From positions 1-40,522 of IMG/VR virus record IMGVR_UViG_2737471847_000003: DNA of 40,522 bases; one strand, given 5' to 3'. Both the position numbers and the translations under genes were made by a program. Positions within the stretch are counted from its first letter, which is position 1; each line of letters starts with the position of its first letter. The notes beneath the pieces were generated by a model. That model had not been told where the DNA came from. It searched no databases and was given only the letters and a program-made list of their open reading frames with translations. Source of the DNA: a virus. Lineage: Duplodnaviria; Heunggongvirae; Uroviricota; Caudoviricetes. Below, piece by piece: positions 8,656 through 11,919 of the stretch.

Positions 8656-9228
8656 TCAGGGGGATTCATTGCTCTTATTTGCCGGAAATTTTCTATAAAT
8701 TGTGGAAACACCCACATCAAAAATCAGTGCAATACGCTGTCTTGATTCTCCGGCCTCGAGTAAGCGTCCAATCTGTGCCCACTGTTCTGTGGTCAACTTA
8801 GGATGGCGTCCACCTACTCTGCCTTTGGCGCGAGCTGCAGCCAGCCCCGCCCTGGTACGTTCAACTATCAGTTCGCGTTCCATTTCAGCCAGGGCACCCA
8901 TGACATGAAAAAAGAAACGGCCCATTGGGGTACTGGTATCAATACTGTCAGTCAGGCTTCGGAAATTCACGCCACGCTGGCGCAGCTCTTCTATCAGCGT
9001 AACGAGATGCCGCATACTGCGCCCCAACCTGTCCAGCTTCCAGACAACCAGAGTGTCACCTGCCGATAATGTCCTGAGCAGTTTTTTCAGTCCCGGTCTG
9101 TCGGACTTAGTGCCACTGATTTTGTCCTCAAAAATCCGCTCACATCCCGCACAGTTCAGTGCATTACGTTGCAAATCGGTGTTCTGGTCATTTGTTGACA
9201 CGCGTACATAGCCAATAAGCATGATCAA
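8656..9228 (-). CDS. Serine DNA invertase, Hin/Gin/Pin/Fin family
   Basis: 190 aa; N-terminal resolvase catalytic motif IGYVRVSTNDQ, C-terminal HTH; lies just outside the left inverted repeat. Confidence 0.9.
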   Translation of the reverse strand: MIMLIGYVRVSTNDQNTDLQRNALNCAGCERIFEDKISGTKSDRPGLKKLLRTLSAGDTLVVWKLDRLGRSMRHLVTLIEELRQRGVNFRSLTDSIDTSTPMGRFFFHVMGALAEMERELIVERTRAGLAAARAKGRVGGRHPKLTTEQWAQIGRLLEAGESRQRIALIFDVGVSTIYRKFPANKSNESP

Positions 9229-9277
9229 TCCCCTGAATAAATACCGGGGATGATGCCAGTTAGTCGTAATCGCTGCA

Positions 9278-9303
9278 TTTTCTTAAACGTTGGTTTGGGA
9301 GAA
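9278..9303. other. hix/gix-like 26-bp crossover site (left)
   Basis: Minus-strand reading TTCTCCCAAACCAACGTTTAAGAAAA, close to hixL TTCTTGAAAACCAAGGTTTTTGATAA. Confidence 0.7.
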
Positions 9304-9663
9304 GCGGCTAAAAGGAATGTAGGGACAGGGGCGAATCAGATACCGGACATGGCCTCTTTTGCCAGTGGTGATGGATGGATGAAATTACCCAACGGGAAAA
9401 TCCTGCAATATGGTCGTGGGCGTGTGTCTCCTACGCTTGCGAGTCAGACACTACGGGTAGAATTTAATATACCTTTCCCTAAAAAAGCTGATATTGCCTT
9501 GCTTTCACATTCTGGTGATGGTGGTTCAACTGCCGGGAGTGGTCGTGGTTTTATGATGACAACTGAAGAGCCAGGGTTAACAGGGTTTTATTCTGCCTTT
9601 AGAACAACCTCGACAAGTCCAACTGTTACCATGAATTACTGTTGGTGGGCTGTTGGCGAGTAA
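9291..9663 (+). CDS. Alternative tail-fibre C-terminal segment, not expressed in present orientation
   Basis: Open frame beginning inside the left IR with [24 protein letters not shown]..., paralogous to the H junction [26 protein letters not shown]; no start codon or promoter of its own. Confidence 0.7.
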
Positions 9664-9684
9664 TTTTATTCAGGGTGATTTAAT

Positions 9685-10128
9685 ATGAACGAATATGTTT
9701 ATAGCGCAAGGCATAATGCTTTTTTCCCTGTGGATATGATTGATAAATATAAATCAGAGGGATGGGATTTATCAGATGCTAAGGAGGTGAATCAAAATAT
9801 TGTCAGTGAGTTTATGGCTGAACCGCCACAAGGAAAAGTCCGTATTGCGGGAGAGGATGGACTACCTGCGTGGGCAGATATTCCTCCACCTACTCATGAA
9901 GAGCTTATTGAAATTACTGAATCAGAAAGACAGCTACTAATTAACCTGGCCAACGAATACATGAACAGTAAGCAATGGCCCGGTAAAGCCGCTATTGGTC
10001 GTCTGAAAGGTGACGAACTGGCGCAATATAATTTGTGGCTGGATTATCTTGACGCACTGGAGCTGGTCGATACTTCCGGTGCGCCAGATATTGAATGGCC
10101 TACGCCTCCGGTAACTCAGGCCAGCTAA
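9685..10128 (+). CDS. Tail-fibre assembly protein, alternative copy
   Basis: 147 aa; C-terminus ...DTSGAPDIEWPTPP parallels the active copy (...DTSTAPEISWPELP); tail-to-tail 29-nt overlap with it. Confidence 0.8.
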   Translation: MNEYVYSARHNAFFPVDMIDKYKSEGWDLSDAKEVNQNIVSEFMAEPPQGKVRIAGEDGLPAWADIPPPTHEELIEITESERQLLINLANEYMNSKQWPGKAAIGRLKGDELAQYNLWLDYLDALELVDTSGAPDIEWPTPPVTQAS

Positions 10129-10495
10129 TCTCAGGAGCCGTCGAAGTGTCGACGGCTTTTACTTCTTTTTTGTAGTCCATCCAGGCAGATAGTTTTTCTT
10201 TATCTGTACTGCTGATATCACCAAGCATTAATTCCACCCGCCAGTCAGCTGTGACATTATCGGCATGAGCAAGTAACTGCATTCGCTGATTTTCAGCACG
10301 TGCGACATAATCAATCGCCGGAGATTTCAGTACCGGTAAACCATTTTCATCTGACGTGATTAATTTACCCCCTTCCTGCTGTCCGGCAATTAATTCATTG
10401 TATAAGTCTGTACTTATCTCAACAATGTCAGCAGGCATGTCGCTGTTTATACCATCAAAGAAAAAACCATTAGTCGATTTTGAGAAATAAATCAT
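10100..10495 (-). CDS. G: Tail-fibre assembly protein G, active orientation
   Basis: Start set at MIYFSK (AGGT RBS, 8 nt after H stop) rather than the ORF-track start at 10525. Confidence 0.75.
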   Translation of the reverse strand: MIYFSKSTNGFFFDGINSDMPADIVEISTDLYNELIAGQQEGGKLITSDENGLPVLKSPAIDYVARAENQRMQLLAHADNVTADWRVELMLGDISSTDKEKLSAWMDYKKEVKAVDTSTAPEISWPELPEA

Positions 10496-10503
10496 AGATA
10501 TAC

Positions 10504-11919
10504 CTATACACCGATTGCTACCCAAAAACAGGACCTTTCATGTTTGACAATTTCTCCCTGAGATATACCGCCAACAATTATATAGAACTGTGATTTGCTG
10601 ATATCAGAACAGTTCGCTATGCCCATTGCAGATATACCAGCCACCGACGTTGTATGTGGCACAGCCAACAGCGCAAGTGAACGATTTGGGAATGTTACCG
10701 GGTAAGTCACCGTATAGTTTGATGCTCCACTGACAATACCCCACTGAATAATCAGACCTGAAGGGAGTTTTTGAAAACCCGTTGATGAAAGTGAACTGGC
10801 AAACGCCGCCATATCCGGAATTTGGTTTTGCCCGCTACCTACATTCCGTTTTGCCGCTTCTCCCAAACCAAGGTATGCGAGAAGACCAGCTACATCCTTT
10901 CCACTCAAATTAGTCAGCGTATTGTCCAGCGGTTGTTTACCTGCCAGCGCATTAAGCATTGTCGTGGCAAAGTTCGGATCATTCCCCAGTGCCGCCGCCA
11001 GTTCGTTCAGTGTATCCAGTGCCGCAGGTGCAGAACCCACCATTGCTGTAATCGCTGATTTCACAAAAGCTGTAGTGGCAATCTGTGTATTGTTGACCGA
11101 CTGTGCCGCAGTAGGTGCTGTTGGCGTTCCGGTGAGTGCCGGACTCGACAGCGGTGCTTTTAGTGCCAGCGCATTGTTAATGGTGGTACTGAATTTCGGA
11201 TCATTGTTAATGGCTGCGGCTATTTCTTTCAGCGTGTCCAGCGTGGCTGGCGCACCATTAATAAGAGCCGTCAGAGCCGCCTGAACAAACGCGGTGGTCG
11301 CAATCTGCGTGGTGTTATTCCCTGCTGCTGGCGTTGGCGCTTTGGGTGTCCCGGTAAATGTCGGACTTTCTTTGGGCGCATACTGTGAATGTGGGTCCGC
11401 TGCGGCAAGGTGTTTTGCCATTTGGTCATCCACATACACCTTCAGCTCCAGTGCTTTATCATCCACATACTTGCGAGTTGCTAGTACTACAGCAGGGTCG
11501 ATTTTCAGGGTGATATTGTCCGTACTGCTGGTAATCAGCACCATGCGTACGGTCTGGGTGCGCCCGCTGCCTTCAGCCAGTTGCGGTTTATAGCTTTCCG
11601 GGCAGTTTCCCACGGCAATCAATGCCCCGGACTCATCAAACAGGCCCACTTCACGTATCCACCAACCGCCCTCGTTTTCAGGGATCACCTGTTCAGCAAT
11701 AATCTGGCTACTGTTCTGCGGGTCGATATAGAGCATATTCAACGCAGCCCGGCGTTTCTCATTTACCAGTGCCGTCTGCTTTGCGTCCGGCGTTGGTAAT
11801 GTTCCGCCGCCATCGCCTACCGCCATATGGGTAATTTTTAACGGCACACCGAGCGCGGCGGCGCTGGCAAGTTTCGCCGCGCCAATATCCGTCAGCAGGG
11901 TATAAAATTTTGTGCTCAT
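10504..11919 (-). CDS. H: Tail fibre protein H (constant N-terminus plus currently fused variable C-terminus)
   Basis: 471 aa; N-terminus MSTKF...MAVGDGGG typical of P2 gpH; internal fibre repeats; C-terminal ~120 aa lie inside the invertible segment. Confidence 0.85.
   Translation of the reverse strand: MSTKFYTLLTDIGAAKLASAAALGVPLKITHMAVGDGGGTLPTPDAKQTALVNEKRRAALNMLYIDPQNSSQIIAEQVIPENEGGWWIREVGLFDESGALIAVGNCPESYKPQLAEGSGRTQTVRMVLITSSTDNITLKIDPAVVLATRKYVDDKALELKVYVDDQMAKHLAAADPHSQYAPKESPTFTGTPKAPTPAAGNNTTQIATTAFVQAALTALINGAPATLDTLKEIAAAINNDPKFSTTINNALALKAPLSSPALTGTPTAPTAAQSVNNTQIATTAFVKSAITAMVGSAPAALDTLNELAAALGNDPNFATTMLNALAGKQPLDNTLTNLSGKDVAGLLAYLGLGEAAKRNVGSGQNQIPDMAAFASSLSSTGFQKLPSGLIIQWGIVSGASNYTVTYPVTFPNRSLALLAVPHTTSVAGISAMGIANCSDISKSQFYIIVGGISQGEIVKHERSCFWVAIGV
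10858..10883. other. hix/gix-like 26-bp crossover site (right)
   Basis: TTCTCCCAAACCAAGGTATGCGAGAA; shares the inner half-site TTCTCCCAAACC-AA with the left site in inverted orientation; 34-bp inverted-repeat arms 9290-9323 and 10838-10871 with 2 mismatches. Confidence 0.7.
10930..11367 (-). repeat. Tandem ~219-bp (73-aa) diverged repeat inside the tail-fibre gene
   Basis: Two protein units NNTTQIATTAFVQAALTALINGAPATLDTLKEIAAAINNDPKF and NNTQIATTAFVKSAITAMVGSAPAALDTLNELAAALGNDPNF. Confidence 0.7.

Follow-up and report, generated by a model that had tools for sequence, protein, structure and literature searches.

Does a prophage that encodes two alternative C-terminal tips for a single tail-fibre gene, one of them silent, switch between them, and by what means? 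The question is posed by a locus at positions 8656–11919 of the IMG/VR virus record IMGVR_UViG_2737471847_000003, a caudoviral sequence of 40,522 nucleotides (nt) that was analysed over its whole length and is hereafter called the window. A preliminary description, drawn from the letters of the sequence, had read the locus as an invertible tail-fibre segment resembling the G segment of phage Mu and accompanied by its own Hin-family invertase. Our analysis makes it very probable that this is a two-state tail-fibre switch operated by a presumably Fis/enhancer-dependent serine invertase of the Gin/Cin/Pin/Fin type, carried by a Fels-2-like prophage of the P2 family at ssrA. The host of this prophage appears to be Escherichia coli, the nearest genomes being 98.9–99.9% identical.

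Two inverted sites bracket convergent fibre-tip cassettes

The entire 40.5-kilobase (kb) window was searched for crossover sites with the Hin-family consensus TTNTCNNAAACCNNGGTTTNNGANAA, written from general knowledge of hix, gix, cix and pix sites, allowing up to 3 mismatches and using 100 shuffles as control. Exactly two matches were returned, at 9278–9303 and 10858–10883 (1 mismatch each; 0.00 expected from the shuffles), which recovers at the same coordinates the pair of inverted 26-base-pair (bp) hix/gix-like sites, and with it the ~1.58-kb segment, that the preliminary description had proposed. The invertase-proximal site (9278–9303) reads TTTTCTTAAACG TT GGTTTGGGAGAA on the plus strand, and the site inside the tail-fibre gene (10858–10883) reads TTCTCGCATACC TT GGTTTGGGAGAA in reverse complement. 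The two are imperfectly palindromic and mutually inverted, possess an identical inner half-site and have an asymmetric central dinucleotide in common (TT at 9290–9291, AA at 10870–10871 on the plus strand), the arrangement needed in this family for inversion as opposed to deletion. In dozens of Enterobacterales loci, the proximal site is conserved ahead of the invertase gene.

A repeat search of positions 8000–13000 found one long inverted repeat, whose 89-nt arms are 78% complementary; the left arm (9278–9366) comprises the site and conserved coding sequence, and the right arm spans 10795–10883. Base-by-base comparison located a perfectly shared core of 19 nt at 9290–9308, with diverged sequence on both sides. 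Multiple-inversion systems have more than two crossover sites and more than two arrangements, and shufflons use the tyrosine recombinase Rci. With two sites in the window and a serine-type recombinase, the locus differs from such systems (p15B Min, R64 shufflon), and we therefore regard it as a simple two-state switch.

As in switches of the Mu G type, the sites bracket two convergent cassettes, each composed of a fibre C-terminus and a chaperone. Tail-fibre gene H (10504–11919, minus strand, 471 amino acids (aa)) combines a Phage_tail_fib N-terminus (E-value 2.7e-65) with a Gp53-like_C C-terminus (6e-14); its constant part covers ~10870–11919 and the variable tip now expressed covers 10504–10869. 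The protein is 84% identical to Fels-2 H over residues 1–259 and 49% identical to P2 H. Downstream of it on the same strand lies the active chaperone gene (10100–10495, 131 aa), which is P2 G-like and matches Caudo_TAP (1.8e-24), so that the active pair was correctly named beforehand. On the plus strand, the silent C-terminus of H (Hv′; 9292–9663, 123 aa, Gp53-like_C at 1.4e-9) is followed by its cognate silent chaperone (9685–10128, 147 aa, Caudo_TAP at 2.6e-29), 52% identical to e14 TfaP. This silent pair, too, is present as proposed, save that the frame of the fibre fragment begins at 9292, not 9291. The resulting gene order, Hc-[Hv G / G′ Hv′]-invertase, equals Mu S-U-U′-S′-gin as well as that of Fels-2, which justifies the initial likening to the G segment. 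The chaperone genes meet tail to tail, with an overlap of 29 nt.

The right-hand site falls at codon ~350 of H, whereby a constant N-terminus can be joined to one of two tips: 350 constant residues are followed by 121 (active) or 123 (silent) variable ones. Flipping 9291–10870 in silico created an uninterrupted open reading frame (ORF), H′, of 473 aa, in which H residues 1–350 are joined in frame to Hv′. The right site thus lies inside H as described, and inversion exchanges the last ~120 residues of the fibre along with the matching chaperone. The tips share only ~30 repeat-encoded residues (48% identity over 75 aa, then nothing detectable), and the active and silent chaperones are 27% identical, a divergence that is consistent with, rather than proof of, different receptors. 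Judged by their sequence relatives, the cassettes are modular. The active one has its matches in phages Cartapus and vB_EcoM-613R3 (97.5–98% identity), the silent one in pro483, a P2-like phage of strain T22, and Omnitron (86–88% identity), and both together occur in no phage record of the collection searched.

A strong intrinsic-terminator-like hairpin (10133–10160, plus strand; 12 pairs and a T run) lies directly 3′ of the silent chaperone gene, within the 3′ coding end of the active one. No comparable hairpin was seen on the minus strand after the active chaperone gene, and so only in the flipped state would the fibre operon be separated from the invertase gene by a terminator.

The adjoining gene encodes a Gin-type invertase

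The gene next to the segment (8656–9222, minus strand) encodes a serine DNA invertase of 188 aa with the Pfam domains Resolvase (2e-53) and HTH_7 (8e-15). In the program-made ORF list the frame (8656–9228) begins at a TTG at 9228; the start is most likely the ATG at 9222 (MLIGYVRVSTNDQ...), which gives the length of 188 aa. The protein has the build of a small serine recombinase (~180–195 aa; catalytic N-terminus with Ser9, C-terminal helix-turn-helix) and aligns gap-free and over its full length to Mu Gin residues 1–184 (PDB 3uj3/4m6f) with an E-value of 8e-93, compared with 1e-28 to 1e-34 for the far less well matching gamma-delta/Tn3 resolvases. Identities of 86% to e14 PinE, 86% to Fels-2 Fin and 75% to Mu Gin, together with the domains and the alignment, assign it to the Gin/Pin/Fin group, in keeping with the Hin-family label given to it previously. 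Both the catalytic Ser9 and the wild-type Met114 are present. The crystallised Gin is an S9A/M114V mutant, M114V being the substitution that makes Gin Fis-independent (PMC3575834); Met114 would here be the sole indirect pointer to Fis dependence.

Upstream of the gene, a conserved motif, TGGCATCAT, was found at 9250–9258 (minus strand), 36 nt ahead of the invertase ATG. In ~37 loci spread over many Enterobacterales, and also in Mu gin (~4555–4575 of the extracted Mu stretch), TGGCA(T/C) recurs at a constant 34–36 nt ahead of the invertase start codon. Two readings of this motif were not supported. Taken as the opposite-strand start codon (ATGCCA) of the silent fragment, it opens a frame that stops within 10 codons in 6 of 17 loci whose upstream sequence is long enough; a further 5 loci have TGGCAC and hence no ATG, and Shine-Dalgarno spacing is poor. 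Taken as a sigma-54 –24/–12 promoter, it has the –12 GC inconsistently placed. As a remaining guess, the motif might be the extended –10 element of the invertase promoter. A sigma-70 promoter scan of 8400–12100 gave no excess over shuffles and no convincing invertase promoter. A short hairpin with the Shine-Dalgarno sequence in its 3′ arm also recurs upstream of related invertase genes.

Synonymous constraint marks a putative Fis enhancer

The preliminary description had suggested that a Fis-bound enhancer be sought in the 5′ part of the invertase gene, and a signature of synonymous constraint pointing to one was found there. To this end, 74 distinct invertase genes (from the window, Mu gin and loci of many Enterobacterales) were codon-aligned, and the frequency of differing codons among sequences encoding the same amino acid was determined per codon and normalised to the gene-wide value for that amino acid. 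The unnormalised synonymous profile is confounded by two-fold degenerate codons; the troughs described here persist after per-amino-acid normalisation.

Synonymous diversity drops sharply in two places, to 0.38 of expectation at codons 7–12 and to 0.51 at codons 23–30, with normal values in between; over the rest of the gene, 6-codon windows are flat (0.87 to about 1.1). Across the 74 genes, the third positions within the first trough are A in 97% for Ser and in 95% for Thr (both four-fold degenerate), T in 95% for Asn and C in 88% for Asp. Each trough coincides with a G-N13-C motif: a putative proximal Fis site, GTGTCAACAAATGAC on the invertase strand (9187–9201; gene nt 22–36), in the first, and a putative distal one, GTGCGGGATGTGAGC (9138–9152; gene nt 71–85), in the second. 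The motif centres are ~49 nt apart and occupy the same register in gin, pinE and fin, and from the first motif centre to the crossover centre the distance is 96.5 bp. The Salmonella hin enhancer lies 99 bp from hixL (PMC3798978), and the comparison with hin rests on this published distance and on the alignment with gin, pinE and fin. A crude Fis scan (G-N13-C with an A/T-rich centre), taken alone, returned several candidate pairs and was not decisive; the present pair was chosen because of the synonymous-diversity profile. We take the troughs to mark a probable recombinational enhancer with two Fis sites, embedded in coding sequence.

Both orientations occur in natural relatives

When a 3.5-kb construct flipped in silico was searched against 5,426 complete E. 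coli genomes, it matched E. coli N39 and N47 over its full length at 99.9%, and at least 8 records among the matches listed cover 100% of it. The window orientation is covered to 100% by at least 5 records among the matches listed, the best at 98.9%. Public E. coli genomes thus carry the element in both orientations, as had been foreseen, with the breakpoint within the site. Diagnostic mismatches between the repeat arms place the point of exchange within 9290–9308, an interval that includes the site centre at 9290/9291.

In one strain, Combat13F7, the two orientations coexist, that of the window on the chromosome and the flipped one on pCombat13F7-1 (NZ_CP019246.1; 45 kb, circular, deposited as a plasmid). 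Apart from the inversion, the copies are essentially identical: their annotated proteins agree, and the 1,585-nt segment shows a single mismatch. pCombat13F7-1, which shares its P2-like prophage genes with the strain's chromosome, may be an excised or circularised phage genome or an assembly duplicate.

The H′ ORF predicted in silico is found in nature, intact and 473 aa long, in N39 and pCombat13F7-1 (4999–6420 of each extracted stretch). In PGAP/RefSeq this flipped gene is split into a pseudogene truncated at the C-terminus and a small ‘gp53-like’ ORF of its own, an artefact of annotation that goes with the less common orientation.

Traces of flipping may also be read from draft assemblies. 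A scan of one genome per species yielded 80 related invertase loci, and in 20 of these the contig ends <135 nt upstream of the invertase gene, at least 12 of them inside the crossover site. Such ends are the pattern expected from mixed orientations that break short-read assembly, and provide a usable assembly signature of actively flipping segments.

Proposed mechanism and alternative explanations

We propose that dimers of the invertase (8656–9222) bind the inverted sites at 9278–9303 and 10858–10883 and would synapse at a Fis-bound enhancer within the first ~90 nt of the invertase gene (about 9138–9201). Staggered cuts, presumably made via Ser9 at the central TT/AA dinucleotide, would allow one subunit pair to rotate by 180 degrees, and religation would invert 1,580 bp (9291–10870). 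The 350-aa constant part of the fibre would in this way be joined to either C-terminal tip, each with its own assembly chaperone encoded next to it, and a lysogen population would release two kinds of virion, expected to recognise different receptors. The predicted step from two orientations to two host ranges is, in our view, well founded.

Several observations weigh against this scheme or parts of it. The centre of the putative distal Fis motif is rich in G and C; gene nt 75, an A in 95% of homologues, is a G in the window. The Fis sites of Hin are spaced by 48 bp, versus 49 nt here by the G-N13-C criterion. The breakpoint is bracketed no more finely than by the 19-nt shared core, so that cleavage at the central dinucleotide would be the expected rather than the observed position. 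Both tips belong to one fold family (Gp53-like_C), and a difference in host range is a prediction. Lastly, we infer flipping in the window's own strain from near-identical relatives.

The last of these points, i.e. that flipping was seen in relatives rather than in reads of the window's strain, and the unusual base in the distal enhancer motif would both suit a fossil switch, whose anatomy persists in a lineage that no longer flips and whose opposite orientations elsewhere record old events. We consider this very unlikely: the invertase ORF is intact and retains Ser9, both sites lie within 1 mismatch of the consensus, and relatives at 98.9–99.9% identity occur in either orientation, including two copies in one assembly that differ essentially by the inversion. 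Moreover, the relatives found in both orientations share the window's base at gene nt 75 and have the same enhancer sequence.

It is likewise highly improbable that the switch mainly serves the host in the lysogenic state, for example through a fibre fragment that blocks the adsorption of other phages as reported for e14 StfE2, with control shared among Pin-type invertases. The idea draws on e14, with which the window shares the inner half-site, the central dinucleotide and all but 1 nt of the proximal site, and whose segment is shared by PinE and PinQ, its inversion by PinQ/PinE reportedly inhibiting T2 adsorption (PMC12529663); moreover, those E. coli genomes that contain related sequence do so at a median of 2 places each. 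However, the prophage is apparently intact, 36 kb long and collinear with Fels-2, and the fibre gene stands in its complete late operon, which makes virion host-range variation the direct reading; late genes are expected to be silent in a lysogen, and the ATG from which the silent fragment might be expressed by itself lacks conservation. Apart from the parallel with e14, nothing would seem to point towards such a role. Hardly any credit is due to RecA-mediated homologous recombination, in place of the invertase, as the source of the inversion, since the 89-nt inverted repeat, though present at 78% identity and with a breakpoint bounded only to 19 nt, is perfectly identical over just those 19 nt and hence a poor substrate, the centre of one of the 26-bp consensus sites falls within the breakpoint interval, the segment is adjoined by an invertase gene of its own that bears an enhancer signature, and the homologous Mu, e14 and Fels-2 systems invert by invertase (PMC12529663, PMC3535392).

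For an invertase-driven, two-state switch of the virion's fibre, several consequences follow. The virions released by such a lysogen should come in two adsorption types, and the invertase may flip other Pin-type segments in the same cell. The predicted cross-action with other invertases, raised already in the preliminary description, is well grounded: Fin is reported to be able to invert the hin segment, the e14 segment serves both PinE and PinQ (PMC3535392, PMC12529663), and the inner half-site and central dinucleotide of the window's sites are those of e14. A more far-reaching notion, which we put forward as speculative and rather unlikely, is that of a shared network in which PinE, PinQ/PinR and the window invertase flip one another's segments, exposed tips could alter the phage susceptibility of the lysogen as reported for e14 StfE2, and late read-through into the invertase gene could depend on orientation, given a terminator in one orientation only. 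The switch further bears on host-range prediction and on how genomes are assembled and annotated, with contigs that break at the site and a flipped fibre gene mistaken for a pseudogene.

The switch lies in a Fels-2-like prophage at ssrA

The window starts with ssrA, the gene for transfer-messenger RNA (tmRNA; 40–402), of whose 3′ end a perfect 47-nt direct repeat (attL/attR; 358–404 and 36586–36632) bounds an insert of 36.2 kb. About 26.7 kb of this insert are collinear with Fels-2 (NC_010463) at 73–86% nucleotide identity, the collinear genes including ogr, D, U, T, E, FII, FI, the invertase gene, the invertible cassettes, H, I, J, W and V. P2-type structural genes, 186-type regulatory genes and an invertase module between G and FI characterise the prophage as Fels-2-like (Felsduovirus-type), and at 36 kb it is apparently intact. 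A TGT-N12-ACA dyad at 8590–8607, 77–94 nt upstream of the start of the tail-sheath gene (FI), occupies the position of the annotated activator-binding site of the P2 late promoter pF, so that the invertase module lies beyond the fibre operon's end and ahead of pF, in the place taken by fun(Z) in P2.

Other genes of the window were noted in passing. A P4/CP4-57-type integrase gene (36836–38077) lies just past the second ssrA repeat, which indicates tandem islands at ssrA. A type II restriction-modification pair, consisting of a GHKL-ATPase-type restriction enzyme (23595–25553, plus strand) and a C5 cytosine methylase (25576–26616, minus strand), sits at a cargo hotspot beside the portal gene, where the near-identical prophage of N39 has an AIPR-family gene. 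Between the prophage integrase gene and attR, a minus-strand gene (34606–36363) encodes a protein of 585 aa with a cytidine/dCMP deaminase domain and a PADLOC match to ‘dCTPase’ (E-value 2e-146), probably an anti-phage dCTP deaminase carried as cargo. A 237-aa ORF between attL and ogr (576–1289, plus strand), for which neither Pfam nor PADLOC gave a match, may be another item of prophage cargo.

Comparison with known systems

The type of system is already known from Mu gin, P1 cin, e14 pin and Fels-2 fin; the switch is an ordinary feature with nothing new in principle, and its placement in the P2 family, activity in E. coli culture and even both orientations of this very element are already contained in the literature or in public databases.

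In Fels-2 of S. Typhimurium LT2 (STM2702–STM2706), which uses the same ssrA attachment site as the prophage studied here, the order FI - invertase - [H′ fragment, G′, G, H C-terminus] - H - I - J is the same, and 26-bp-type sites occupy the two equivalent places (7708–7733 and 10442–10467 of Fels-2). The Fels-2 segment differs in length (2.73 kb vs. 1.58 kb here) and in its central dinucleotide (TC/GA vs. TT/AA here), and from 9311 to 10850 the variable cassettes show no relationship in their DNA sequence. Two reports describe Fels-2 Fin as adjoining a 2.7-kb invertible segment and as able to invert the hin H segment (PMC3535392, PMC12529663).

The e14 element of E. coli K-12 resembles the locus at its crossover sites: the site next to pinE differs from 9278–9303 by 1 nt of 26, and the inner half-site with the central dinucleotide, TTGGTTTGGGAGAA, is identical to the window's. 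It likewise has convergent fibre-tip/chaperone cassettes with overlapping chaperone genes, in the order stfP-tfaP-tfaE-stfE-pinE (PMC12529663). However, e14 is a defective lambdoid element with a remnant of a fibre gene, whereas the window's switch is part of a complete P2-type late operon.

With Mu gin, and with the P1 C segment and cin, the locus shares its logic and the order Sc-[Sv U / U′ Sv′]-gin, as well as an invertase gene transcribed in the direction of the fibre gene. In both Mu and the window, 67–68 bp separate the site centre from the invertase start, and the enhancer has the same register within the invertase gene. In contrast, the G segment is ~3 kb long and swaps about two-thirds of S (boundary at nt 509 of 1515), compared with the last ~120 of 471 residues in the window; the central dinucleotide, the half-sites and the virion backbone (Mu vs. 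P2 type) differ as well.

Finally, P2-like prophages of the enteropathogenic E. coli (EPEC) strain E2348/69 combine a Hin-family invertase with inverted repeats in tail-fibre genes and flip in standard cultures, as established by sequencing and polymerase chain reaction (PMC4272514). By the description given there, one locus with three repeats and four variants is set apart from the two sites of the window, and another, a simple two-variant switch, is like it (PMC4272514).

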